Part shown: piece after piece, positions 7,811 to 22,800 of the stretch
Numbering within the stretch: position 1 is the first letter of the stretch
Layout: each line of letters starts with the position of its first letter
Source of the DNA: Candidatus Hydrogenedentota bacterium
GTDB lineage: Bacteria > Hydrogenedentota > Hydrogenedentia > Hydrogenedentales > SLHB01
Direction: 5' to 3'
Assembly: GCA_026387845.1 (NCBI GenBank)
Contig: JAPLKX010000254.1
Location: 1-34,244, forward strand
Length of the DNA: 34,244 nt
Program-made: the position numbers and the translations under genes
Notes under the pieces: generated by a model
The model's database searches: none
The model's input: only the letters and a program-made list of their open reading frames with translations
Told to the model about the DNA's origin: nothing

Positions 7811-8452
7811 TCACCAGGTGTTGGACGTAATCGCCCCTTCAAGACCGAGAAGCTGGAGGCTGCGGTCCTGTTCGGCGACGAGCATGTCGAACAGGAACAC
7901 GTTCTCGGGGTCTTTTTCGAGCGACGCGCGGATCTCCTGGATGGCCCCGTCGATGACGGCGAGGTTCTGGTCGATGACGGTGCGTGTTTCTGGCGCGAGC
8001 CGGCGTGGCAGTTGATCCATGGCGGCCACCAGTTCGCGCCGCGCGCGCTGGTATTCGGCCTCGACCACGAGCACTTCCTGTTCGAGCCGGACCGGGGCCT
8101 CAGCCGCCAAGCCGGGATTGAGCGGCCTGGGGTGGTCCAGCATTAGCAAGCTTCCAGCCAGAATGGCCAAAACGGCCGCGGCCAAGGCAAGCACGGTAAA
8201 TCGGCCTGCTCTCGAGATGCGCCGTTTCGAGCCCTTTTCAATCTGCCCGCGGATGCCCGGCCACAGGTCTCTGTGCGGCTCGATATGGCGCGGGAGGGCT
8301 TTTGCCGATTGCAGCAATTCCCGCAGGCCGTTGGCTTGGCGCGCGCAGTCAGGGCATGAGGCCAAATGACGCGCCACCAGCGCGGGCTCTTCCCCGATCA
8401 GCAGGCCGTCGACGTAGTCGTCCAGGAGGTGCTGAACCGTTTGGCATTTCAT
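7811..8452 (-). CDS. membrane anti-sigma factor (zf-HC2 type)
   Basis: MKCQTVQHLLDDYVDGLL...HLASCPDC contains the H-x3-C-x2-C zinc motif. One TM segment, FTVLALAAAVLAILAGSLLML. The ATG at 8452 overlaps the sigma stop (ATGA, 8449-8452). Confidence 0.8.
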   Translation of the reverse strand: MKCQTVQHLLDDYVDGLLIGEEPALVARHLASCPDCARQANGLRELLQSAKALPRHIEPHRDLWPGIRGQIEKGSKRRISRAGRFTVLALAAAVLAILAGSLLMLDHPRPLNPGLAAEAPVRLEQEVLVVEAEYQRARRELVAAMDQLPRRLAPETRTVIDQNLAVIDGAIQEIRASLEKDPENVFLFDMLVAEQDRSLQLLGLEGAITSNTW

Positions 8453-8979
8453 GGCTGTATCATCTCCCTGAGCAATCGGCGGGCATGGTGCAACTGGGCT
8501 TTTGATGTTCCCACGGCCACGCCCAACTGCTCGGCAATTTCTTCGTGGCGGCACCCTTCAACGTCATGCAGAACGAACACGGCCCGGGCCCCTGCCGGCA
8601 ACGTGCTGATGGCTTCTTGAAGATCGAGTCGGAGGGTTGGGTCGAATTGCACGGACCGCGCCGGGGCGTTGGACTCACAAGCGGCGCGCCGCAGTTCGGT
8701 TCTGTACCGTGCGGCAACGGCGTTGACGGCGATTCTGAACAGCCAGGAGCCGAACGAGCTGTCGCCGCGGAACCCACCCAGGTTCCGCCACGCCCGGATG
8801 AAGGTTTCCTGGGTGAGGTCTTCGGCCGCGGCCGCGTTGCCCGTGAGGCGCAGGCAAAGACCGTGGACCCGCCCCGAGTGCATGCGGTAAAGCGATTCAA
8901 ATGAAGTGAGGCAGCCGGATTGTGCAGAAGTTACGAGCGCGTTCTCGTCTACGGCCGGTTCTGTCATGATGGCTGCCAC
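8449..8979 (-). CDS. ECF (sigma-70 group 4) RNA polymerase sigma factor
   Basis: Region 2 DLTQETFIRAWRNLGGFR and FGSWLFRIAVNAV. Region 4 HEEIAEQLGVAVGTSKAQLHHARRLLRE. GTG start at 8979 has AAGGGGA 8 nt upstream; the alternative ATG is at 8967. Confidence 0.9.
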   Translation of the reverse strand: MAAIMTEPAVDENALVTSAQSGCLTSFESLYRMHSGRVHGLCLRLTGNAAAAEDLTQETFIRAWRNLGGFRGDSSFGSWLFRIAVNAVAARYRTELRRAACESNAPARSVQFDPTLRLDLQEAISTLPAGARAVFVLHDVEGCRHEEIAEQLGVAVGTSKAQLHHARRLLREMIQP

Positions 8980-9189
8980 GTCCGCTGTCCCCTTATTCTT
9001 AACCTTTTAGATGCCGCCGAAGGCAAAAAGGTTTGAGCGGGGAAAAAGAATGAGGGACATTGTACAGGAAACCCGTTGGGACGCCCGCCGCCCGCGCCGC
9101 AACACCCCTCGCCGGGCTCCAACACGGACGATACCGTAACCCAAATCAGCCTTGACATAACACGCCCTCGCTTCTCAACCACGCCATCA

Positions 9190-9255
9190 ACGTCCGCACC
9201 AACACCCTCTGTTTTATATAGCCTTCTTGGTGCACTTTTTGACCAGAAAAGGCGG
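9190..9255 (+). repeat. copy A of a ~65-bp imperfect direct repeat
   Basis: ACGTCCGCACCAACACCCTCTGTTTTATATAGCCTTCTTGGTGCACTTTTTGACCAGAAAAGGCGG aligns without gaps to 10102-10167 with about 9 mismatches. Confidence 0.8.
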
Positions 9256-9439
9256 GCAAACCCTGGCTGGAATTGCGAAACAAGGGGGATTCAGTTGACA
9301 CAATTGGCAATATAGATAGGTATTCTACAAAATTATGGTCAAAAGGTCTGGCAGAAAATTATTTTGGCGACAGATGCCGGAGACGGGAAGATGAGGGATC
9401 GAGGGAGGAAGAAATCTTGCAAGTGAGGCTTCCGGGGAC

Positions 9440-9901
9440 CTATTTTGGGTGTGATGTTCGCAGTACGGCGAGGGCTTCGGCGAGCGCCCTCTTCCTGAAC
9501 TGTTGCAAAAAATGCAACAGTTGACTCCCGGTCGACTTCACCCGGTAGCCGACCGAGATGATCGCATCGAGGTTGTAGAAGGAAGTCTGGTAGACCTTGC
9601 CGTCCTCGGCAGTATGTGCAAATTTTGCACATACTGCCTCGCGGTCCAACTCCCCTTCTTTCAACACGTTGCGCAGATGTTTGGTGATGACGCTCCGCTC
9701 CGTGTCGAAAAGCGCCGCCATCTGCTTCTGCGTGAGCCAAACCGTGTCCCTCTCCAATCGCACATCGAGCGAGACTTGGCCGTCCGGCGCGTGATAGAGC
9801 ACAATGGCGCTTCCGCCATATCCGGCGGTTTCCTCACGCACCATCCGGTTTTCCACGCACGCTTTGCTTTTGGCCTTCATCTTTCGCCCATCCTTTGCCA
9901 T
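9440..9901 (-). pseudogene. RhuM-family (virulence/Fic-associated) protein, N-terminal fragment only
   Basis: IVLYHAPDGQVSLDVRLERDTVWLTQKQMAALFDTERSVITKHLRNVLKEGELDREAVCAKFAHTAEDGKVYQTSFYNLDAIISVGYRVKS follows the conserved RhuM N-terminal pattern. It then diverges and stops ~35 aa later, at a CTGTTGCA-N5-TGCAACAG hairpin (9500-9521). Start codon uncertain. Confidence 0.6.
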
Positions 9902-10101
9902 CTTACAATTCTCCCTCGAATTGCCAGCGTAGAAAGCCAGCCGGAAGGTAGTATGGCGACCTTTTCCGTCCGCGGCAACCCGTGCCTTTCTGCAAGAGTT
10001 CTCCGCAAATGGCCGCATGTTCTCGTAGGTCATTTAACTGGCGAGAAATGCGCAGTCTTGAAGTCATAATTTGTGACTTCAAGTCCCTGGTGCTGCCGCC
10101 G

Positions 10102-10167
10102 ACGCCCGCACCAACACCCTTTGTTTTATATAGGCTTCTTGTTGCACGTTTTGAGCAGGAGAGGCGA
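10102..10167 (+). repeat. copy B of the ~65-bp direct repeat
   Basis: ACGCCCGCACCAACACCCTTTGTTTTATATAGGCTTCTTGTTGCACGTTTTGAGCAGGAGAGGCGA. Same orientation as copy A. The two copies bracket the RhuM fragment. Confidence 0.8.
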
Positions 10168-10278
10168 AGAACACCTCTTGCTTGTTGTTTCCCCGCTGCG
10201 TGACATGGTGCGATGCACCAGGGACGACTATGCGCGCCAGTCGCCCCGCCTCATGTCAATATAAACGGTGACTGTCCC

Positions 10279-10512
10279 GAATGGCACTGACTTAAGCTCA
10301 ACCCGTTTCCGGTAAATAGCTTGTGCATGAGTCCATCTGTTCTGGGCCTCACGATGCAGGAACCTGTCATCATGCACGTGAAAAAGCCCGTTTCTATTAC
10401 GTCTTACGTACGACACTTGGCGAGGTTGCTCTTCGGGTAGCTGGATACTAACCACATCGTTTCAGTGCAAGTCTTTTTCTATGAGTAGGTTGCGGTTAAG
10501 TCAGTGCCATTC
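10279..10512. mobile_element. 234-bp MITE-like non-autonomous element with perfect 17-bp terminal inverted repeats and 11-bp target-site duplication
   Basis: TIR-L GAATGGCACTGACTTAA (10279-10295). TIR-R TTAAGTCAGTGCCATTC (10496-10512) is its exact reverse complement. The TIR extends to 25 bp with 2 mismatches. Identical GTGACTGTCCC lies immediately outside both ends (10268-10278 and 10513-10523). Confidence 0.6.
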
Positions 10513-10719
10513 GTGACTGTCCCCATTTACCGCCATTTACCGGTCCCCATTTACCGATTTACCGAACCTTGGCATTTGTTCCGTTACCTGAACGAGCATT
10601 GTTTCCGGTTCAACAGCCGCAAGATGACTGATTCTGATCGGTTTCAGATGCTTCTTGGAATGATTAGCGGGAAGCGCTTGACCTATGCTACACTAACGAA
10701 TGAGACACCAGCTTACTAA
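10504..10719 (+). pseudogene. C-terminal remnant of an IS1595-family (ISXO2-like) transposase
   Basis: PWHLFRYLNEHCFRFNSRKMTDSDRFQMLLGMISGKRLTYATL matches the typical IS1595 transposase tail pattern (HLxRYLxEFxFRFNxR...RF...L...RLTYxxL). Only about 50 aa are recognisable. The N-terminal part of the ORF is MITE/TSD/tandem-repeat sequence. Confidence 0.55.
10523..10564 (+). repeat. short tandem repeat of CCATTTACCG
   Basis: CCATTTACCG at 10523-10532, 10533-10542 and 10547-10556, plus a partial ATTTACCG at 10557-10564. Confidence 0.8.
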
Positions 10720-10753
10720 ATACCCTTCGGACCCCCGAAGAGGGGTAGGCATA

Positions 10754-10897
10754 ATGGAAGAAAAAGACGAGAACAAGGGAAGTGATTCCCCGTTCGACAA
10801 GTTTAAGAATTTGAGCAAGCGCCTTGTGCATGTGCCCAAGAAGGAAGTAGACCGCAAGGAAAAAGCACAGCGGGCAAAGAAACGCTTTGCGAAATAG
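10754..10897 (+). CDS. small lysine-rich hypothetical protein (47 aa); coding status uncertain
   Basis: ATG at 10754 with GAGGGG about 9 nt upstream. MEEKDENKGSDSPFDKFKNLSKRLVHVPKKEVDRKEKAQRAKKRFAK. TAG stop. No recognisable domain. Confidence 0.3.
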   Translation: MEEKDENKGSDSPFDKFKNLSKRLVHVPKKEVDRKEKAQRAKKRFAK

Positions 10898-10902
10898 AAT
10901 TG

Positions 10903-10973
10903 TGCCCCCGGCGGGGTTCGGACCCGCATGATCGGTTTTAAAGACCGACATCCTTCCGGTAGATGACGGGGGC
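10903..10973 (-). tRNA. tRNA with anticodon UUA (ochre-suppressor type; Lys/Gln/Tyr-derived origin not determinable); atypical T-loop
   Basis: Minus-strand cloverleaf: GCCCCCG-UC-AUCU-ACCGGAA-GGAU-G-UCGGU-CUUUAAA-ACCGA-UCAU-GCGGG-UCCGAAC-CCCGC-CGGGGGC-A. Seven-bp all-Watson-Crick acceptor stem, U8 and GG in the D-loop. Perfect 5-bp anticodon stem with a 7-nt loop having U33 and A37, so positions 34-36 are UUA. Oddities: a 4-nt variable loop, C instead of U at position 55, and no encoded CCA. Confidence 0.6.
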
Positions 10974-11130
10974 ATGATAAGGTGGGGCTCGCCTCGCCAA
11001 TGCTACGACAGGGCAACTATCGTAGCACGACTGTTAGCTCCACCAGTGGGCAAGCCCGCTTGACGCTGGTGGAGCTTCTGCTGATAAGGCGTGGTATTGC
11101 ATACCAGCATCCTTTCCGGTTATCACCAAA

Positions 11131-11817
11131 TCACCGCGATTCGGTGCTAGTGCCTTTAGGCCCGGACTTAGCCAAGCACCAAAGCCCGTTCTTGTTCTTT
11201 GCAAACACATCCGGCTCTCGCTTTAGCAGAGTCCTGAGCGTATTTTTGTTGCTTATGTTTCCACCGCGCTCCCGGATTTCCGTACAAAGTGTGCTTAGGC
11301 TCATTGGTGTTTGTTTGTCGGCGAGTATCTCGGCAACGTATGCGGTAACTTTCTTGGCGGGGTGAAAACGATCTACTTTTGCTTTCTCGACTGTCACAAG
11401 AGTCAGGTTTTGTTGCTGTATGTCACCTTTTCTAAATACGACTTTGCCATTATCTTTCTTAATGAGCCTGATGACGCCCTTTTCCGAAAGACGTGTTGCC
11501 GCTTTGTAGAAATTTGGATATTCACTACGCGGGTTAGTAATCTTTCGTCCGCCTTCTTGGGCAGCTTTGATTATTTCAATCAATGACCATTCGCTGGAAG
11601 AACTGTTAACGACAGCCTGCACGATTTCGCTAGGTCCTATATTTTCGTAAGGGTTTATAGCGGGAATGGTTGCTTGCTTCTCTCGTCTCAGAAGCGCTTC
11701 CACCTTTTCAATAGCCGCAATAACCTCTGTAAGACGAGCTATTTCCTTTCTGTGGCCCTCTATCTCATTCTCAAGATTAGCCTTAAGGCTCTTTAGCTCT
11801 TGAATTGAGTCAGACAT
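11131..11817 (-). CDS. coiled-coil protein with two winged-helix regions, the C-terminal one HARE-HTH-like
   Basis: ATG at 11817 preceded by AAGGAGAA; TGA stop. N-terminal heptad-rich segment SIQELKSLKANLENEIEGHRKEIARLTEVIAAIEKVEALLRREK. C-terminal VTAYVAEILADKQTPMSLSTLCTEIRERGGNISNKNTLRTLLKREPDVFAKNKNGLWCLA follows the HARE-HTH pattern (ILxxxxxPMxxxEL ... F.....G.W.L). Low-GC gene. Confidence 0.7.
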   Translation of the reverse strand: MSDSIQELKSLKANLENEIEGHRKEIARLTEVIAAIEKVEALLRREKQATIPAINPYENIGPSEIVQAVVNSSSSEWSLIEIIKAAQEGGRKITNPRSEYPNFYKAATRLSEKGVIRLIKKDNGKVVFRKGDIQQQNLTLVTVEKAKVDRFHPAKKVTAYVAEILADKQTPMSLSTLCTEIRERGGNISNKNTLRTLLKREPDVFAKNKNGLWCLAKSGPKGTSTESR

Positions 11818-11901
11818 GACTATTTTCTCCTTAGCAAGATGCAGCTTGTAGGTTTTATGTTGACAAATGTTGTCATATGTGGTACCTTTAATTAAAGAAA
11901 A

Positions 11902-11974
11902 TGGCCGACCGGGGATTCGAACCCCGAACTAACGATTCGCAGAAACGTCGTTCTATCCATTGAACTAGTCGGCC
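11902..11974 (-). tRNA. tRNA with non-canonical anticodon arm (nominal anticodon UGC; isotype uncertain)
   Basis: GGCCGAC-UA-GUUC-AAUGGAUA-GAAC-G-ACGUU-UCUGCGA-AUCGU-UAGUU-CGGGG-UUCGAAU-CCCCG-GUCGGCC-A (73 nt). Canonical acceptor, D and T arms, with a UUCGAAU T-loop. The anticodon stem has a U-U mismatch and the loop has C at position 33. There is no G3:U70, so it is not a standard tRNA-Ala. The sub-string CUGCGAA resembles Arg(ACG)-type loops (CUACGAA), but that register does not pair. No encoded CCA; a TTTTCTTT tract follows. Confidence 0.7.
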
Positions 11975-11978
11975 TTCT

Positions 11979-12008
11979 GGGCACTCAGAGTGTCACCTCT
12001 GAGTGCCC
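11979..12008. other. perfect 12-bp-stem hairpin 4 nt upstream of the tRNA 5' end
   Basis: GGGCACTCAGAG (11979-11990), loop TGTCAC, CTCTGAGTGCCC (11997-12008), followed on the plus strand by TTCTATTT. May insulate the tRNA from the divergent promoter region. Confidence 0.5.
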
Positions 12009-12076
12009 TTCTATTTAAGATCGTACCACACGCCGCACAGCTTTGTCAATCGAAAAGTGAACGCCCCGCCATGTTT

Positions 12077-12172
12077 AAACTTGGCCGCTAGACAAACGCT
12101 AGACAGCCCCTTGACAAGGTGTACACCTGTTATGCATGTTGTACATGTACTTATTGCACACAAATGCCATTC
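12077..12172 (+). promoter_or_regulatory. candidate promoter/operator cluster upstream of the large methyltransferase-fusion gene
   Basis: Direct repeats GCTAGACA at 12077-12084 and 12088-12095 (11-bp period). TTGACA at 12101-12106. 10-bp palindromes GGTGTACACC (12108-12117) and GTACATGTAC (12131-12140) share a GTACA core. Possible sigma-70 promoter TTGCAC (12144-12149), 17-nt spacer, TGATAT (12167-12172). All are pattern matches only. Confidence 0.35.
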
Positions 12173-12436
12173 CTGATGATATTTTCAGATGACGAAATGG
12201 TGCCCCCCCTTCCCCTTGCTCTAACCAAAATGTACCACTACCAAGAAATGGTCCCGTTTTTCGCTCGACATGCCCCTCTTGATGAGTCAAGTATATTATC
12301 GCCGAAATAAGAGTGGGGTGGCCGAATCTCGTAGTCTGTCCGGGAGTTGCCCGGAATTGCCCACGAGAGAATAAGGGGGATTTTCGAAGGGTCGGCGATT
12401 TCGTGTATTGTAGTGGTTGGACTTAGGGGTAAGGAT

Positions 12437-15400
12437 ATGGGAACGACTGAGCACACGATTAATGATGCAATCGCGGAAGTTTTGAGGGAAACTCGGCGTG
12501 TGTGGCGGAACAGCAAATTTGTGAGTTCCGAGAACACGGGGATGCTGAAACATAGCGCTAAGCAGCCGGACATAGTGATTATTGAACCCAATATGTCGCC
12601 GGTAGTAATCGAAAACGAGGTGATGCCTGCTGCCAATGTGGAATCAGAAGCAATATCACGTCTTGGGCAGAAGATTCGGTATGCAGGACGAACCATTCTG
12701 TCTTGTATTGCTTTGAGGTCACCATTGCGCCTGCGGGAAAAGCATGGGCAGTCATTGCTGAATGATTTGCGTCAGGCAGATGATCTGGAGATGGCACTTT
12801 TCACGGGTGTTTCTCGTGCGGAGTATACGCGCTGGCCGCGATCAGGGTGGATCAGCGCTAGCATTCCAGACGTTTCTGTTGTTGTGCAAACCGCATCAGT
12901 TCCGCCGGAAGTTGTCGAACAGGCCGCAGAAGAATTAATCAGTGGCGTAAGTGATGCTGCCGGTCTAATGGAGGATATTGGAGCAACCAACCCGGGGGCG
13001 ATTGAAAAGATATGCCGAGAACTGCGGCAAGAGAACTGCGAGCAGACTTTGCGTATGGCTGCAACTATTCTGGCTAATGCGTTTGTATTTCAAGAGACTT
13101 TGGCCGGCGGACCGGGTGAGTTGAAGCTTGTCAAATCTCTGGATCAACTTCGGTCTTCCAGTGGGGGACTTTCAAGACCTGGTGTTTTGAGCGAGTGGCG
13201 AAACATTCTGAAAGTAAACTACTGGCCGATTTTCGACATCGCACGGCGGATTCTAGAAGTCATCCCAGCCGGCGAGACGAAGCCGCTCATAGACTGTCTT
13301 GCAACGACCGCAGAACGATTACTGGCAAATCGGGTGATGCGGTCGCACGACGTGACGGGAGCTGTTTTCCAGAGACTTATTGTAGACAGAAAATTTTTGG
13401 CTGCGTACTACACGACGCCGGCGTCGGCTGCGTTGCTGGCAGGGTTGGCAATCTCGTCGGATCACCCGCCGGGGGGCGGATCATGGGCCAATGCAGAAGA
13501 TGTAAAAAGGCTTCGGATTGCGGATTTTGCTTGCGGGACCGGCACCCTTCTGACAACAGCTTACCAACGAATTGGACAATTGCATGAGGCGGCGGGTGGA
13601 GATGTTGAGGCAATCCATCCGGAGATGATGGAAAGCAGCCTCGTGGGTTGCGATGTCTTGCCAGCGGCAGCACATTTGACTGCGTCCATGTTGGCCGGCG
13701 GACATCCAACTGTGAAATACGATCAGAGCTGCATTTTCACTGTTGCTTACGGAAAGCAGGAGGAAGGGCACGTCGCGCTTGGGTCGTTGGATCTGTTAAA
13801 TCCCCAGGGTCAGTTAGAAATTCTTGCGATTACGGCCAAGGCTATTGGAAGCTCGGGTGAATCAGATAAGGACACGTGGCAGTCGCTTCCTCATGCGTCG
13901 TTCGACCTTGTTATTATGAACCCGCCGTTTACTCGTGCGACCAACCATGAGGCAGGAAAAGCCAACGTACCAAATCCTGTGTTTGCAGCTTTCAGTTCGA
14001 GTTCTGAAGAACAAAGGATGATGGGAAAGGCAACTGAAAAACTGACAAAAGGCACGGCTGCTCACGGGAACGCAGGAGAAGCTTCTATCTTTCTTGTTCT
14101 CGGTGATAAGAAGGTAAAGGCAGGGGGAGTCTTGGCATTAGTTATGCCGCTCAGTTTCATGTCAGGTGAGTCTTGGGAAGGTTGTAGGTCACTGTTGGCA
14201 AAGAATTACGATGAGCTCATTCTTCTGTCAATTGCTGGGGCGGGCGATAATGACATTTCTTTTTCGGCAGATACAGGTATGGGCGAATGCCTGTTGATTG
14301 GGAAAAAGTGTCCGTCGGCGACGAATCGGGCGACGTTTGTCGTGCTGAATGAACGCCCGACATATAGGCTTGTTGGATCAAACCTTGCCGAGCAGATCGC
14401 GGATCTCATCCGCAATGGAAATGTGAGACGCCTTGAAGACGGACCTCTAGGAGGTTCTCCCATCCTTTTCGGAGATGAGGTAGTTGGACATGCGCTTGAC
14501 GCACCTTTGCCAGAGTCGGGCCCTTGGAATTTGGCACGGATAAGCGATCTGTCTTTGGCGCAAGCGTCGTATCAGATGATAGTAGAGCAGAGGGTTTGGT
14601 TGCCGGGGATGCGCGCCAGAGATGCTGTCGCGGTACCCATTACTTCAGTTGAAACGGTGGGACAGGTGGGACCAATTGATCGCGATATCAACGGCTATAC
14701 GCCGGAGGGAGCCATACGGGGGCCTTTTGATACGCCTGATGTGAGGCCGGGAACGGTACCAACTTACCCTGTTCTTTGGTCACATGATGCTGCACGTGAG
14801 CGTAGTATGGAATTCGATGCGGATTGTGAGGGAATTGCAAGGCGGGGAAGTAACGCCGAAGAGCAGATGGCTCTTGAGACGAAGTTGGCAGCCGTATGGG
14901 ATACAGCTTCGCATTGCCACTTTAATCGTGATTTTCGATTCAACAGTCAAGCAACAGCAATGCAATACACACCACGGAAAACCATGGGAGGCCGCGCGTG
15001 GCTGTCGATTCAGCTTGCGTCCGATGATCTGGAAAAGGCTCTTGTTTTGTGGGCGAATACGTCTTTGGGACTGTTGTTGCGTTGGTGGCACTCGAACAAA
15101 CAACAGGCTGGAAGAGGAAGCGTTGCCAAATCTGCGCTCCAGACCTTACCTATACTTGACGTGACGAGGCTCAGCGCGAAGAGACTTCGTGAAGCAGTGC
15201 GGTTGTTTGAGAGTTTCAAGAGGAAAGAACTTTTGCCGATCAATGAAATCGAACATGATGCGGTGCGTGCGGAAATGGACTCTGAGTTCGCCCTAAAGGT
15301 GCTGGGGCTTGATCCGGAGTTGGTTAAGACGGGTGGGACGCTTGAACTGCTGAGAAATAAGCTGGGGCGGGAACCTTCGGTAAGAGGCCTGAAGAAGTAG
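12437..15400 (+). CDS. ~988-aa fusion protein: PD-(D/E)xK-like N-terminal region + gamma-class N6-adenine (amino) methyltransferase core + uncharacterised ~400-aa C-terminal region (Type IIG/IIL-like architecture)
   Basis: First ATG is at 12437 (the ORF is open from a TTG at 12347). MTase motif I ADFACGTGTLL (nt 13523-13546 for DFACGTGT) precedes motif IV MNPPFTR (NPPF at nt 13919-13930). AAYYTTPASAALLAGL helix lies upstream, and GCDVLPAAAHLTASML lies between the two motifs. N-terminus has AIAEVL...KQPDIVIIEPNMSPVVIENEV, i.e. PD-x13-ExE. TAG stop. Confidence 0.75.
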   Translation: MGTTEHTINDAIAEVLRETRRVWRNSKFVSSENTGMLKHSAKQPDIVIIEPNMSPVVIENEVMPAANVESEAISRLGQKIRYAGRTILSCIALRSPLRLREKHGQSLLNDLRQADDLEMALFTGVSRAEYTRWPRSGWISASIPDVSVVVQTASVPPEVVEQAAEELISGVSDAAGLMEDIGATNPGAIEKICRELRQENCEQTLRMAATILANAFVFQETLAGGPGELKLVKSLDQLRSSSGGLSRPGVLSEWRNILKVNYWPIFDIARRILEVIPAGETKPLIDCLATTAERLLANRVMRSHDVTGAVFQRLIVDRKFLAAYYTTPASAALLAGLAISSDHPPGGGSWANAEDVKRLRIADFACGTGTLLTTAYQRIGQLHEAAGGDVEAIHPEMMESSLVGCDVLPAAAHLTASMLAGGHPTVKYDQSCIFTVAYGKQEEGHVALGSLDLLNPQGQLEILAITAKAIGSSGESDKDTWQSLPHASFDLVIMNPPFTRATNHEAGKANVPNPVFAAFSSSSEEQRMMGKATEKLTKGTAAHGNAGEASIFLVLGDKKVKAGGVLALVMPLSFMSGESWEGCRSLLAKNYDELILLSIAGAGDNDISFSADTGMGECLLIGKKCPSATNRATFVVLNERPTYRLVGSNLAEQIADLIRNGNVRRLEDGPLGGSPILFGDEVVGHALDAPLPESGPWNLARISDLSLAQASYQMIVEQRVWLPGMRARDAVAVPITSVETVGQVGPIDRDINGYTPEGAIRGPFDTPDVRPGTVPTYPVLWSHDAARERSMEFDADCEGIARRGSNAEEQMALETKLAAVWDTASHCHFNRDFRFNSQATAMQYTPRKTMGGRAWLSIQLASDDLEKALVLWANTSLGLLLRWWHSNKQQAGRGSVAKSALQTLPILDVTRLSAKRLREAVRLFESFKRKELLPINEIEHDAVRAEMDSEFALKVLGLDPELVKTGGTLELLRNKLGREPSVRGLKK

Positions 15401-15448
15401 AGTGGGTTATGGTGGGGGAACTCGTTGTCGGGGGGAGTACGCGCGGGC

Positions 15449-17281
15449 CTACGTTGGGACGCCCCCGGTCGGGCGAGGGCGCTTTCGGCGCATGGCGTAC
15501 GCGCCGAGGAGGGCCAGCGAGACGGCCATAATCAGAACGGCCGGCGCGTATGTGCTCAGCAGGGGCGGGTGAACATCGATTGTTACGGTGTAGATAGTTT
15601 TCGGTTCGCCATCGTACTCGCAATGGTAGGCGCCGGAGTCGGTGAGTTGGAGATCGGGAATCATCAGGGTCCGGCAGTTGACGCCCTGGCAGCGGTCCTC
15701 GTCGAGCCCGCCTTCGCCCTCTTTGCTCCACTGGAATGTGGCTGACGGCGCAATTTCTCCGGGCACGCGCAGGCAGGCATCCTCGCCCGCGGCGAAAGAC
15801 GTTTGGACGGACGGCGCGCAATCGGGGCAATCCGATCCCTGGGCGCGCTGGGCCAGCGGAACGTACGGGGTCCCTGACCGATAAAGCAGGTACAGGCCGA
15901 CGTTGCCCGTGGTGCCGTTCTGCAACGTGTAGGGGTAGCCGGTATTCCACAATACCCAGGCGGCCTGTTCCCATTCGGGATGGGGTTCGTTTTCATAAGC
16001 CGCGAGTTTCCACAAACCAATGAGGAACGGATACGGAATCGAATGCATGCTGACATTGAGCGTAGCGGCGGGCCCAAGGTTGTTCAGTTCCCACGCCAGG
16101 TTGTCCAGCATCGCGACCGCGTAAGGGCGCAGTTCAGCGGCTTCCGCGGAGTCGCCTCGGTCGCGAAGCGCGACATAAGCCTCGGTCATGGCCCAGGCGT
16201 TCATGCACCCGTACCACAGAAGCGCGTTGTGACCGTCCCAGTTGCGGCCGGGCCGTTGCGCCCCGGCCCACAGCGCGCTGAACGGCTGGCCAGCCATGCC
16301 GTCGACCATGCCATCCTCGTTCCAGTCGGTCAGCACACCCGGCTTGAGGTTGCGCTCGAGTTTGTCGAGCATGGCTTCCTTGAACGGCGCCTCGCCGGTG
16401 AGGCCATACAACTGCGCCAGGAGCCAGACGTTTTTGGCGGTGTAATTGTGGTTGCGCACGGGCGGCTCAGACGCGCTCCACGCGCCCGCCAGCCGCGCCG
16501 ATTCCAGAAACTGGGCGCGTTGGACGGGGTCGTCTTGTTGAATGGCCGCCTCGACCATCATCACGCCGGTCCAGCCGTGGTCGTAGGCCATGCCGCCGTC
16601 GTACACGCGCGGGGACACCCAGAAGTCGCCGGCGACGAACTTGCGCCCGCTCCACTTGCCGCCGGCATAGGTGACACACAAATCAGGTACTGTGGCGCAG
16701 AACGTGGGAATGACATCCATTATGCCGCCGCGATAACAAGGGTCCGCGGGATCGCCCAGCGAGTAGGCATACGCATAGGCGCCTTGCCAGGTGACGGGCG
16801 GGGTGGCGGCGTGCGCTTCGCTGTATTGCGTGGCGGCCATGTCGCCGGCGATAACCGCCAAGTCGGCCAGTGGGACCGTCAAGCTCCCCGCCAACCGGGC
16901 ATAGTAGGCGCCAAGCGCCGCGGAGGGCCATTCCCTTCCGAGGGTGGGACACGCGGAATTGTACGCCGCAAAGCGGGGAGCATGAACCGATTCCCATACC
17001 GTAGTGACGGTTTGCAGGGATGGCGGTGTAGGATTGGGGGCCGCCCGGGTATAGTCCTGCTCGGGACACCCCACGTCCGCGCCCCGGGTTTCCTTGGCGG
17101 CGTTGATAGCGGCCCGCACGTCGGACGCCGACCCCGAGTACATCGCGTTCTCGATGGCCCAACGGTCAGTCGAGGAACCGTAGGGATCGGCGCAAGGCGC
17201 CGCGCCAACCGGGACGGCGGCCAGCCAGAGGAAGCACAAGAGTATGTTGCGGAACCAATGCGGCCGGATTGTGCCCTTCAT
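15449..17281 (-). CDS. secreted, C-terminally membrane-anchored protein: large alpha-helical (possibly alpha/alpha-toroid) domain + Ig-like domain
   Basis: ATG at 17281 preceded by GGAGGAGG. Signal peptide MKGTIRPHWFRNILLCFLWLAAVPVGAAP. Ig hallmark C-x14-W ... LQLTDSGAYHCEY near the C-terminus. TM segment APAVLIMAVSLALLGAYA followed by RRKRPRP. Confidence 0.7.
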   Translation of the reverse strand: MKGTIRPHWFRNILLCFLWLAAVPVGAAPCADPYGSSTDRWAIENAMYSGSASDVRAAINAAKETRGADVGCPEQDYTRAAPNPTPPSLQTVTTVWESVHAPRFAAYNSACPTLGREWPSAALGAYYARLAGSLTVPLADLAVIAGDMAATQYSEAHAATPPVTWQGAYAYAYSLGDPADPCYRGGIMDVIPTFCATVPDLCVTYAGGKWSGRKFVAGDFWVSPRVYDGGMAYDHGWTGVMMVEAAIQQDDPVQRAQFLESARLAGAWSASEPPVRNHNYTAKNVWLLAQLYGLTGEAPFKEAMLDKLERNLKPGVLTDWNEDGMVDGMAGQPFSALWAGAQRPGRNWDGHNALLWYGCMNAWAMTEAYVALRDRGDSAEAAELRPYAVAMLDNLAWELNNLGPAATLNVSMHSIPYPFLIGLWKLAAYENEPHPEWEQAAWVLWNTGYPYTLQNGTTGNVGLYLLYRSGTPYVPLAQRAQGSDCPDCAPSVQTSFAAGEDACLRVPGEIAPSATFQWSKEGEGGLDEDRCQGVNCRTLMIPDLQLTDSGAYHCEYDGEPKTIYTVTIDVHPPLLSTYAPAVLIMAVSLALLGAYAMRRKRPRPTGGVPT

Positions 17282-21450: not shown

Positions 21451-22542
21451 CTAACCCTTGAACGATCCATTCTTATAGAACGGGAATTCTTCAGTCACTA
21501 TTTCCATATCTTTCGGGCCGGCGGTGAGGCGTGTTCCGGGCATGGACAACTCGACCGGAATGTAAGCCATCCCGATTCCATAACCGACGCTGGGCCCGTA
21601 GCTGCCGCTGGTCACCACCCCCACGGGGCGGCCTTCGTGAAACACCTCGTAACCCGGGCGCGGGGCCCGGCGGTCCATTGAACGGATGCCGGTTCGCACC
21701 TTGTACCGGCCGAGTTCGCGCTGCATCACGAGGAATTCCTTGGCGTGGAATTCGCTGTTCCAATCGATAAACCGTCCCATCCCGGCTTCGAGCGTGGTGT
21801 GTGATTCGTCGACGTCCTGGCCGTACAGGGTGTAGCCCATTTCGAGCCGGAGCGTGTCTCGCGCGCCAAGCCCTGCCGGCTCGACCGCCGGGTGCGCGGT
21901 GACCTCGCGCCAAAACGGCGCCGCCAGCGCGTTTGGGAGAAAGACTTCGTAGCCCAGTTCGCCCGTATACCCCGTGCGCGACACCAGCATCTCCGAACCT
22001 TGCCACTGCGTCCTGCAGCAGGTGAAATACTTGAGGGGCTCGATGTCGCGCAGGCCAAGGTCCAACAGGACGCGCCGCGACAGCGGCCCCTGGACGTCGA
22101 TCTTTGCGGTGCCGGCCGTGACGTCGGTGGCGAGGCAAACGCGGTAGAGGATTCGGGCGACTTTTTCGTAGGGGCCGGCGTTGGTGACCACGAACAACTC
22201 GTCTTCGCTGAGTTTCATGGCGATGACGTCGTCGATGATGCCGCCGCAGGTGTCGAGGATGCTCGAATACCGGCACCGGCCCACTTTGAGGCAGATCATG
22301 TCGTTGAACACCATCGCCTCGAGTGACCGTATGGCCTTGGGACCCTTGAGTCGGAACTCGCCCATGTGGCAGCAATCAAACACGGAACATTTGGATCGAG
22401 TGTGATGGTGCTCCTCGAGGATACCCTTGAACTGGACGGGCAACATCCATCCGTGGAACTCGGTCATTTTGGCGCCGCGCAGGATGTGTTCGTCGTAGAG
22501 AGGGGTTCTTTTGACGTTTCGTGCTTCCAGGACGGCTTTCAT
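21451..22542 (-). CDS. gcvT: aminomethyltransferase (glycine cleavage T protein)
   Basis: ATG at 22542 with AAGGAGG 5 nt upstream (the ORF-track start 22548 is GTG). KRTPLYDEHILRGAKMTEFHGWMLPVQF, GYTGELGYEVF. Confidence 0.93.
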   Translation of the reverse strand: MKAVLEARNVKRTPLYDEHILRGAKMTEFHGWMLPVQFKGILEEHHHTRSKCSVFDCCHMGEFRLKGPKAIRSLEAMVFNDMICLKVGRCRYSSILDTCGGIIDDVIAMKLSEDELFVVTNAGPYEKVARILYRVCLATDVTAGTAKIDVQGPLSRRVLLDLGLRDIEPLKYFTCCRTQWQGSEMLVSRTGYTGELGYEVFLPNALAAPFWREVTAHPAVEPAGLGARDTLRLEMGYTLYGQDVDESHTTLEAGMGRFIDWNSEFHAKEFLVMQRELGRYKVRTGIRSMDRRAPRPGYEVFHEGRPVGVVTSGSYGPSVGYGIGMAYIPVELSMPGTRLTAGPKDMEIVTEEFPFYKNGSFKG

Positions 22543-22800
22543 AGCCACCTCCTTGCCGGAGGCGATGACGCCTCCGACCTCGCGCGCCCCGCATCGCGCC
22601 GACCCGGAAGCCGGCTCATGCTTGGCGCACAGCTACCCGGCGCGCATCAGCGCGCCAGGCGCCCAGGCGAGCGGCAATCCTGGAACCCGCCGCTTCCTCG
22701 TGGTTCGTTCCACGCAAGTCGCCAGTCACGGCGGGAACATTCAACAGCGAGAATGTGCCACACCGGGGAGGGCCACGTCAAGCCGCCGCGTAACGCGGAT
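22543..22800 (-). promoter_or_regulatory. long structured 5' leader of the gcv operon with an SD-sequestering alternative hairpin (riboswitch-like expression platform; aptamer class not confirmed)
   Basis: About 260 nt without a credible ORF. RNA reads GGAGGCG-UCAU-CGCCUCC-GGC-AAGGAGG-UGGCU-AUG. The CGCCUCC arm (DNA 22569-22575) can pair either with GGAGGCG (22558-22564) or with the SD region GGAGGUG. Several further GC-rich hairpins lie upstream. Confidence 0.4.

Follow-up and report, generated by a model that had tools for sequence, protein, structure and literature searches.

A low-GC island of a Hydrogenedentota genome encodes a probable lone restriction-modification enzyme, single-chain and Type IIL-like, that represents a large uncharacterised family

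We analysed a stretch of 34,244 nucleotides (hereafter, the window), which is contig JAPLKX010000254.1, positions 1 to 34,244, of the assembly GCA_026387845.1 of a Candidatus Hydrogenedentota bacterium. Its forward strand carries a gene (12437-15400, stop codon included) whose 987-residue product appears to combine, on a single chain, a nuclease, a methyltransferase and a target-recognition domain (TRD). The open reading frame (ORF) is open from a TTG at 12347 and ends at 15400. Reading from the ATG at 12437 gives 987 residues, and this ATG coincides with the starts of homologues ('M-x-TTEHTINDA…'; e.g. 'MATTEHTINDA…'), whose coverage agrees with the gene limits. A preliminary description of this DNA had made two suggestions: that the gene encodes a restriction-modification enzyme of the single-chain Type IIG/IIL-like sort whose nuclease motif is non-canonical, or that it is the effector of an undescribed defence or epigenetic module. 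Here we argue for the first of them.

The first 142 residues (12437-12862) are assigned to a PD-(D/E)xK-type nuclease domain on the combined evidence of an AlphaFold2 (AF2) model, Foldseek and conservation. Modelled separately, residues 1-160 give an alpha-beta-beta-beta-alpha-beta core with a pLDDT (predicted local distance difference test) of 90.6. D45 lies at the start of one strand (residues 46-48 in the models) and E59-x-E61 within the next. The predicted succession of a helix, three strands, a helix and a strand is that expected of PD-(D/E)xK enzymes. The putative active site includes E5 in the first helix (12449-12451; Glu in 101 of 101 ungapped family sequences), the 'PD' half-motif P44-D45 (12566-12571; Asp in 107 of 107 sequences, Pro in 94) and the '(D/E)xK' half-motif E59-N60-E61 (12611-12619; Glu at position 59 in 107 of 107), where Glu occupies the Lys slot. 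E5, D45 and E59 are unchanged in the 107 full-length family sequences. They are also the only invariant residues among 30 diverse N-termini, plasmid and halovirus sequences included, which are 21-53% identical to that of our protein.

Position 61 behaves differently. Among the 107 sequences it is Glu in 89, Lys in 15, Asp in 2 and Ser in 1, and on a neighbour-joining tree it switches about 11 times. The plasmid and halovirus homologues read PD…IEGK and PD…GEAK, a canonical ExK. Since Glu and Lys alternate here across the family, position 61 is truly the Lys slot of PD-(D/E)xK, and the earlier remark that Glu sits where Lys is expected proves to be to the point. Judged by its residues, the site of our protein would be the Glu variant, a BamHI-like E…D…ExE. 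The active site of BamHI (E77/D94/E111/E113) is the same four-residue set, OkrAI likewise has E/D/E/E, and up to 2010 only BamHI, its isoschizomers and BtsCI were known to carry a Glu in the Lys slot (PMC3025578). The likeness is one of the acidic set: BamHI, a small homodimeric enzyme of Type IIP, lacks a methyltransferase, and we found no sequence relation between it and our protein. Given that E5, D45 and E59 are invariant and that position 61 is kept as Glu or Lys, we argue that the active site is a working one. A profile of the 30 N-termini, used to look for this nuclease domain in other architectures, picked up nothing but short pieces or truncated genes that belong to this same family and carry no Pfam label. 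Among such sequences are ORFs of 125-253 residues that match the nuclease domain only (P0282, P0321, P0350 and P0352, on contigs of 92 kb to 1 Mb), which suggests that some genomes hold truncated or frameshifted copies of the gene.

Residues 301-620 (13337-14296) form a gamma-class N6-adenine methyltransferase according to Pfam, PADLOC, a family profile and Foldseek. The motif X region AAYYTTP (residues 322-328; 13400-13420) comes first, with A322, Y325, T326 and P328 conserved in at least 95% of 107 sequences. It is followed by motif I, DFACGTGT, the S-adenosylmethionine (SAM)-binding loop (residues 363-370; 13523-13546), in which D363, G367, T368 and G369 are invariant in 74 sequences. Motif IV, NPPF, the catalytic loop of amino-methyltransferases (residues 495-498; 13919-13930), has invariant N495, P496 and P497. 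This is the gamma-class order, and here the preliminary description holds in full: the motifs PD, ENE, AAYYTTP, DFACGTGT and NPPF all lie where it had placed them. Because D45, E59, D363, G367, G369 and N495-P496-P497 are invariant or nearly so in 74-107 members, which are 31-67% identical to our protein, the motifs are not due to chance. Motif I aligns with that of BrxX. The PADLOC model MTase_II matches at 5.8e-11 and Pfam N6_Mtase below its threshold. Searching the PDB with the single sequence returns BrxX only (E 0.11), and searching it with a profile of 74 family sequences returns only methyltransferase cores: BrxX/PglX at 1.8e-5, DrdV at 3e-4 and the MmeI chain at 0.93.

A full-length AF2 model built with 41 homologues has a mean pLDDT of 68.6, good at residues 1-300 and 560-987 and poor at 398-546. 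Its layout is alpha/beta over 1-142, all-helical over 143-300, methyltransferase over 301-620 and beta-rich over 621 to about 800, with a partly helical end. The helical segment (12863-13336; DSSP helices at 143-297) occupies the same position as the MmeI spacer and the DrdV connector. When the model is compared with the PDB by Foldseek, the Type IIG enzyme BpuSI (PDB 3s1s) is the best full-length match, aligned end to end over 1114 columns with E 7.8e-14. It is followed by CamA, BrxX/PglX, DrdV, M.BseCI and the Type ISP enzyme LlaBIII; the alignment to PglX/BrxX also exceeds 1000 columns. BpuSI has the same nuclease-spacer-methyltransferase-TRD order. It is only 11% identical to our protein, and the global TM (template modelling) score is low, 0.21-0.23, so that the domain orientations must either differ or have been mis-modelled.

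The C-terminal region (14297-15397; beta-rich at about 621-800, partly helical at about 801-987) resembles a TRD by its divergence, its Foldseek matches and its position relative to MmeI. Across the wide family, divergence is greatest at residues 640-800, where the mean identity is 27% against 43% for the methyltransferase and where indels occur. Alignment coverage there drops to 72-90% in the most divergent members, and several representatives of 50%-identity clusters align in two pieces with a break near residue 625-665. Clean module swaps were not seen in this region across the wide family. Such divergence is what a region that determines specificity would look like. This C-terminus had been called unknown. 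The word is apt insofar as no Pfam or PADLOC model matches it, but the region behaves like a target-recognition one. Taken in isolation, the N-terminus, spacer and C-terminus have no Pfam match even at E up to 10 and no PADLOC match.

The closest parallel in layout is provided by the Type IIL enzymes MmeI and DrdV. MmeI consists of an endonuclease (1-155), a helical spacer (156-300), a methyltransferase (301-620), a TRD (621-825) and a C-terminal helical bundle (826-919) (PMC4833311). Our protein shares this five-part layout; its boundaries nearly coincide with those of MmeI, and the layout described for DrdV matches as well. The sizes are comparable (987 residues against 919 in MmeI and 1029 in DrdV), and like these enzymes ours has no companion methyltransferase. 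DrdV is among both its structural and its profile matches. The sequence likeness to MmeI and DrdV is, however, confined to the methyltransferase core. MmeI_N, MmeI_hel, MmeI_TRD and MmeI_C do not match in Pfam even at E up to 10, and MmeI_Mtase gives E 0.17 (11.5 bits against a cut-off of 27), so the protein does not belong to the MmeI family as Pfam defines it. The nuclease motifs differ too, D-x13-ExE here and D70-x9-E80-x-K82 in MmeI (PMC4833311).

No gene for an endonuclease, S subunit, helicase, ATPase or second methyltransferase adjoins the ORF in the window, and when PADLOC was run on the 25 other ORFs and on two sub-segments of the protein itself it reported no component of restriction-modification, BREX, DISARM or MADS systems. 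The preliminary description had been correct about the missing neighbours, and its proposed PADLOC check gives the same answer. For about 80 loci we also clustered, all against all, the ORFs lying up to 5 kb from the gene. Different lineages have no neighbour family in common, among these or among the roughly 85 loci considered overall, and the only recurrent synteny found is specific to one Chloroflexi clade. Some copies lie amid toxin-antitoxin or defence genes (NERD, BrnT/BrnA, an M78 peptidase with DUF4411, SLFN-AlbA2, a Type ISP enzyme); elsewhere the gene is a single insertion among metabolic genes. Neither upstream nor downstream DNA is conserved across lineages, no conserved element ends were seen, and in the window no flanking repeats bracket the gene. 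The gene is thus a lone one, as Type IIL genes are, in the window and in about 85 loci. The second suggestion of the preliminary description, taken as the effector of a multi-gene module, is not supported, as no neighbour is conserved across lineages. BpuSI works beside separate methyltransferases; unlike it, our gene has none nearby.

The gene had also been called an orphan. It is one in the sense that it has no partner gene, but not in the sense of having no relatives: homologues number in thousands. A word-indexed search gave more than 6,000 matches, and the best 120 of them are all full-length, about 986 residues long and 63-68% identical, with 100% length coverage. Carriers among the best matches are Nitrospiraceae, Planctomycetota, Acidobacteriota, Chloroflexota, Poribacteria, Verrucomicrobiota, Alphaproteobacteria, Betaproteobacteria and a bacterium of the CPR (candidate phyla radiation); across many phyla the identity to our protein is 53-67%. 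In the GTDB set of one genome per species, 215 stretches from many phyla encode a relative. An exhaustive search of 50%-identity representatives yields 1,134 clusters at E up to 1e-30, most of them of 950-1,020 residues, aligned end to end at 33-56% identity. Cultured strains have copies as well, which carry no other label than 'hypothetical protein' or 'DNA methyltransferase family protein', and our literature searches found no description of the family. In comparison with Pfam, NCBIfam, PADLOC, the PDB and the literature, this is a large, widespread and uncharacterised family that the first three of these resources miss.

The family has spread horizontally, as can be seen from the low GC content around the gene in the window, a plasmid copy and the patchy distribution across phyla. 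In Nitrosospira sp. NRS527, a plasmid that bears a type IV secretion system carries a 61%-identical copy. Distant full-length homologues with the canonical ExK occur on the plasmids pUSP4 of Aminobacter (L087) and pSTJ1 of Sulfuricystis (L088), which are MOB-typed as mobilizable. Their neighbours include genes for a zincin-like metallopeptidase, DUF5710, DUF3560, the PRTRC system and a topoisomerase, and these settings read as neighbourhoods of the plasmid establishment or anti-restriction type. Haloviruses of the Hafunaviridae encode distant homologues deposited as 'type IIG restriction modification enzyme'. One of these, gp37 of HSTV-4, and the pUSP4 protein, deposited as 'N-6 DNA methylase', are true distant homologues over most of their length (26-27% identity; E 1e-71 and 2e-41). 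Their N-terminal PD…ExK aligns with D45/E59/E61, but with Lys in the third slot. The C-terminus of gp37 is largely unrelated to ours, and both proteins are known only as deposited records.

Taken together, these observations lead us to propose, with a probability of about 65%, that the gene encodes a stand-alone, single-polypeptide Type IIL-like restriction-modification enzyme. As in Type IIG/IIL enzymes, the nuclease, methyltransferase and target-recognition domains stand in this order from N- to C-terminus on one chain, judging from the model, Foldseek and the MmeI boundaries. The catalytic residues of PD-(D/E)xK are conserved, in an ExE version and with Foldseek support for the fold that is weak, and motifs X, I and IV are in the expected order. 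The MmeI/DrdV layout, the BpuSI fold match and the E/K alternation support the first suggestion of the preliminary description. By analogy with MmeI and DrdV, we infer that the enzyme methylates DNA, cleaves it, is specific for a site and protects against phages. Its C-terminal region would read a short asymmetric DNA site. The methyltransferase would flip out one adenine of that site and, with SAM, methylate it at N6, and this methylation would mark the DNA of the host. On unmethylated foreign DNA, enzyme molecules bound to their sites might come together and cut the unmodified DNA at a distance. For this the nuclease would use a BamHI-type E…D…ExE metal site, an acidic one, instead of the usual ExK.

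Several points weigh against this proposal. No curated model in Pfam, NCBIfam or PADLOC recognises the protein, and all NCBIfam matches are far below their cut-offs. The Pfam family Eco57I (PF07669) scores 23.6 bits, with a gathering cut-off of 25.3. Among five relatives scanned for it, one (P0136) is above the cut-off with 27.3 bits and the others have 18-22 bits or no match; some close homologues carry a precomputed match. The REase_MTase_IIG models of PADLOC reach only about 1e-3 over about 100 residues. Part of the methyltransferase is poorly predicted, with pLDDT below 50 at 398-489 and 499-546. Members of the close subfamily are conserved evenly from one end to the other, the C-terminus as much as the nuclease. 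All members of the family are known from sequence alone.

The nuclease domain raises difficulties of its own. A profile of the N-terminus finds zero matches among PDB sequences. The N-terminal model has no significant Foldseek match: nothing appears at E 1e-3 in the PDB or BFVD, where the best values are 0.15 and 3e-3, respectively. The weak matches, which we use qualitatively only, are mostly to PD-(D/E)xK proteins where they are named. They include 3ijm, which has a restriction-endonuclease-like fold (TM-score 0.43-0.46), Cas4 SSO0001, ACE1, the N-terminal domain of Eco15I, an Mrr-domain protein, VRR-NUC, cap-snatching endonucleases and UL24. The fold check proposed in the preliminary description gave a predicted core of the kind sought and no significant structural match. 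Then there is the alternation at position 61. Replacement of Glu by Lys in BamHI (E113K), and of Lys by Glu in EcoRV and EcoRI, severely reduces cleavage (PMC3025578), whereas our family has exchanged the two residues about 11 times. Because the same swaps cripple these enzymes, free exchange within one family is left unexplained, and we regard it as the one mildly surprising point here.

The last difficulty comes from the Chloroflexi. At least 12 species of Aggregatilineales/Phototrophicaceae keep the gene in one slot (loci L051-L084, at about 8001-10960), with MsrB upstream and a DinB-like gene and a conserved gene of about 365 residues downstream. The mean pairwise identity of the enzyme is 72%, and that of the flanking genes 75% and 84%. 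The enzyme has diverged to an extent similar to that of its neighbours, which indicates a long residence in this clade. A stable slot of this kind is somewhat unusual for a presumed restriction gene and fits a fast-turnover defence gene less well. It is also the main support for a rather unlikely alternative, according to which the protein acts chiefly as a DNA methyltransferase, in an epigenetic or a housekeeping capacity, its nuclease-fold domain serving, e.g., DNA binding, repair nicking or autoregulation; the shared slot suggests long vertical retention. The uniform conservation of the close subfamily, C-terminus included, and the several loci amid plain metabolic genes would suit it as well. 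Yet the residues a nuclease needs are not relaxed: E5, D45 and E59 are invariant and position 61 is, in the proportions reported above, Glu or Lys family-wide, and the nuclease motif is intact in all copies from the Chloroflexi slot. The divergence of residues 640-800 in the wide family, the patchy spread across phyla and the copies on plasmids and in viruses also argue against a housekeeping methylase.

Another possibility is that the mechanism is not that of classical restriction-modification. The target might be a fixed or structural feature of a nucleic acid, or the nuclease might be triggered by something other than unmethylated sites, and the likeness to Type IIL would then be architectural only. 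Such a mechanism would sit well with the lack of any curated-family match to the nuclease, the spacer or the C-terminal region, with the rarity of a Glu-for-Lys site among characterised restriction enzymes (PMC3025578), and with the high conservation of the full length across many phyla. We nevertheless consider it unlikely. Each recognisable feature of the protein has a counterpart in MmeI, DrdV or BpuSI, and no new mechanism is required.

It is very unlikely that the protein serves as the subunit for methylation or specificity in a multi-gene defence system (of the type of BREX PglX, MADS MAD2 or DISARM DrmMI) with partner genes located elsewhere. The idea derives from the best sequence matches of the methyltransferase core, which are to BrxX/PglX, with PADLOC mad2 at 1.5e-6 and PglX at 8.7e-5. 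Motif I and the residues around it do find their nearest sequence-level counterpart in PglX/BrxX, whose methyltransferase-TRD fold is also similar. The matched region of PglX, however, starts at about residue 305 and comprises the methyltransferase core only, and in those profiles the matches begin about 230-410 residues in. We know of no N-terminal nuclease in PglX or in families of the MAD2/DrmMI type. PglX functions only together with other BREX genes. Membership was rejected in each case: for PglX on a score of 14.1 bits with NF033452 (cut-off 500), for MAD2 on 15.4 bits with NF047738 (cut-off 720) and for DISARM on scores and missing partner genes. No BREX, MADS or DISARM gene was found in the window or beside homologues in about 85 loci. 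Least credible of all is the idea that the protein methylates something other than DNA. Methyltransferases that act on adenine in RNA or on glutamine in proteins share the NPPY/F motif, and there are weak matches to METTL5 (0.009), PrmC (0.065) and an MTS domain around the NPPF loop. These matches, however, extend over no more than about 20-40 residues at motif IV. As a whole, the protein matches the folds of DNA methyltransferases or of restriction-modification enzymes with a TRD, and DNA is indicated as the substrate because a PD-(D/E)xK nuclease is fused in an MmeI-like layout.

We return, then, to a Type IIL-like restriction-modification enzyme. Because the MmeI models of Pfam, PglX and MAD2 all fail and Eco57I is borderline, we place the protein in a functional kind that is known, as a new member at the level of a family, and in no named family. 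A more far-reaching proposal would combine three elements: a very large MmeI-like clade invisible to annotation tools, an all-acidic BamHI-type site with about 11 natural E/K swaps, and, in at least one Chloroflexi lineage, a long retention hinting at a stable epigenetic or housekeeping role besides or instead of restriction. We put this combination forward tentatively and are inclined to doubt it.

The surroundings of the gene deserve description. It lies in an island of low GC content (9000-15450) defined by the composition profile, tRNA, Pfam/PADLOC and repeat searches, which also holds two tRNAs, a winged-helix ORF and a RhuM fragment. GC is 46-55% across about 9000-15500 and about 60-65% (about 62%) in the flanks; the enzyme gene itself has about 51% in a genome with otherwise about 62%. 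A tRNA-Ala(UGC) lies at 11902-11974 on the opposite strand, 460 bp upstream of the gene. The second tRNA (10902-10973, minus strand), labelled 'tRNA-Stop' by ARAGORN, is well formed (54.3 bits with the Rfam tRNA model, cut-off 29) and has the acceptor stem GCCCCCG/CGGGGGC and the anticodon loop C-U-UUA-A-A. With its UUA anticodon it would read the stop codon UAA as an ochre suppressor. It could be a suppressor tRNA of a mobile element or a mutated Glu, Gln or Lys tRNA.

A truncated ORF of the RhuM family (9440-10033, minus strand) matches the PADLOC defence candidate PDC-S05 at 1.9e-44. It is bracketed by a 72-nt direct repeat (9183-9254 and 10095-10166, 85% identical), and just beyond these repeats there is a 42-nt inverted repeat (10262-10303 and 10488-10529, 86% complementary, 184 nt apart). 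The fragment and both kinds of repeat appear to be what is left of an element concerned with mobility or defence. An island of low GC beside tRNAs and mobile-element debris was what the preliminary description had reported, and the GC dip, the two tRNAs, the RhuM fragment and the 72-nt repeats bear it out. Between the tRNAs is an ORF of 228 residues (11131-11817, minus strand) with a coiled-coil-like N-terminal stretch, whose sole family match is a weak one to the Rok winged helix (E 7e-4, below cut-off). It has no PADLOC match and does not occur beside homologues of the enzyme in about 80 other loci. Downstream of the gene are an unrelated immunoglobulin-domain protein, probably secreted to judge by its sequence, and then a lipoate-protein ligase. 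Farther along, a ZMP/ZTP riboswitch (22654-22739, minus strand; Rfam RF01750, 60.5 bits against a cut-off of 39) sits upstream of a 365-residue ORF (21451-22548, minus strand).

What would this family mean if the proposal is correct? It is not conceptually new, and nothing here alters our understanding of restriction-modification. If its members are active, they would constitute a large and phylogenetically broad pool of single-chain restriction-modification enzymes, with more than 1,100 clusters at 50% identity, most of which come from bacteria of soil and water that are uncultured. Among them might be enzymes with new recognition sites and new cut offsets, as has been the case with the MmeI family. 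Since PADLOC, Pfam and NCBIfam do not call the family, inventories of defence genes and assignments of methylomes to genes in these phyla probably miss it where they depend on these models. Finally, because the same swap severely reduces cleavage by BamHI, EcoRV and EcoRI, the family is a ready comparative system for the tolerance of PD-(D/E)xK sites to a change between Glu and Lys.

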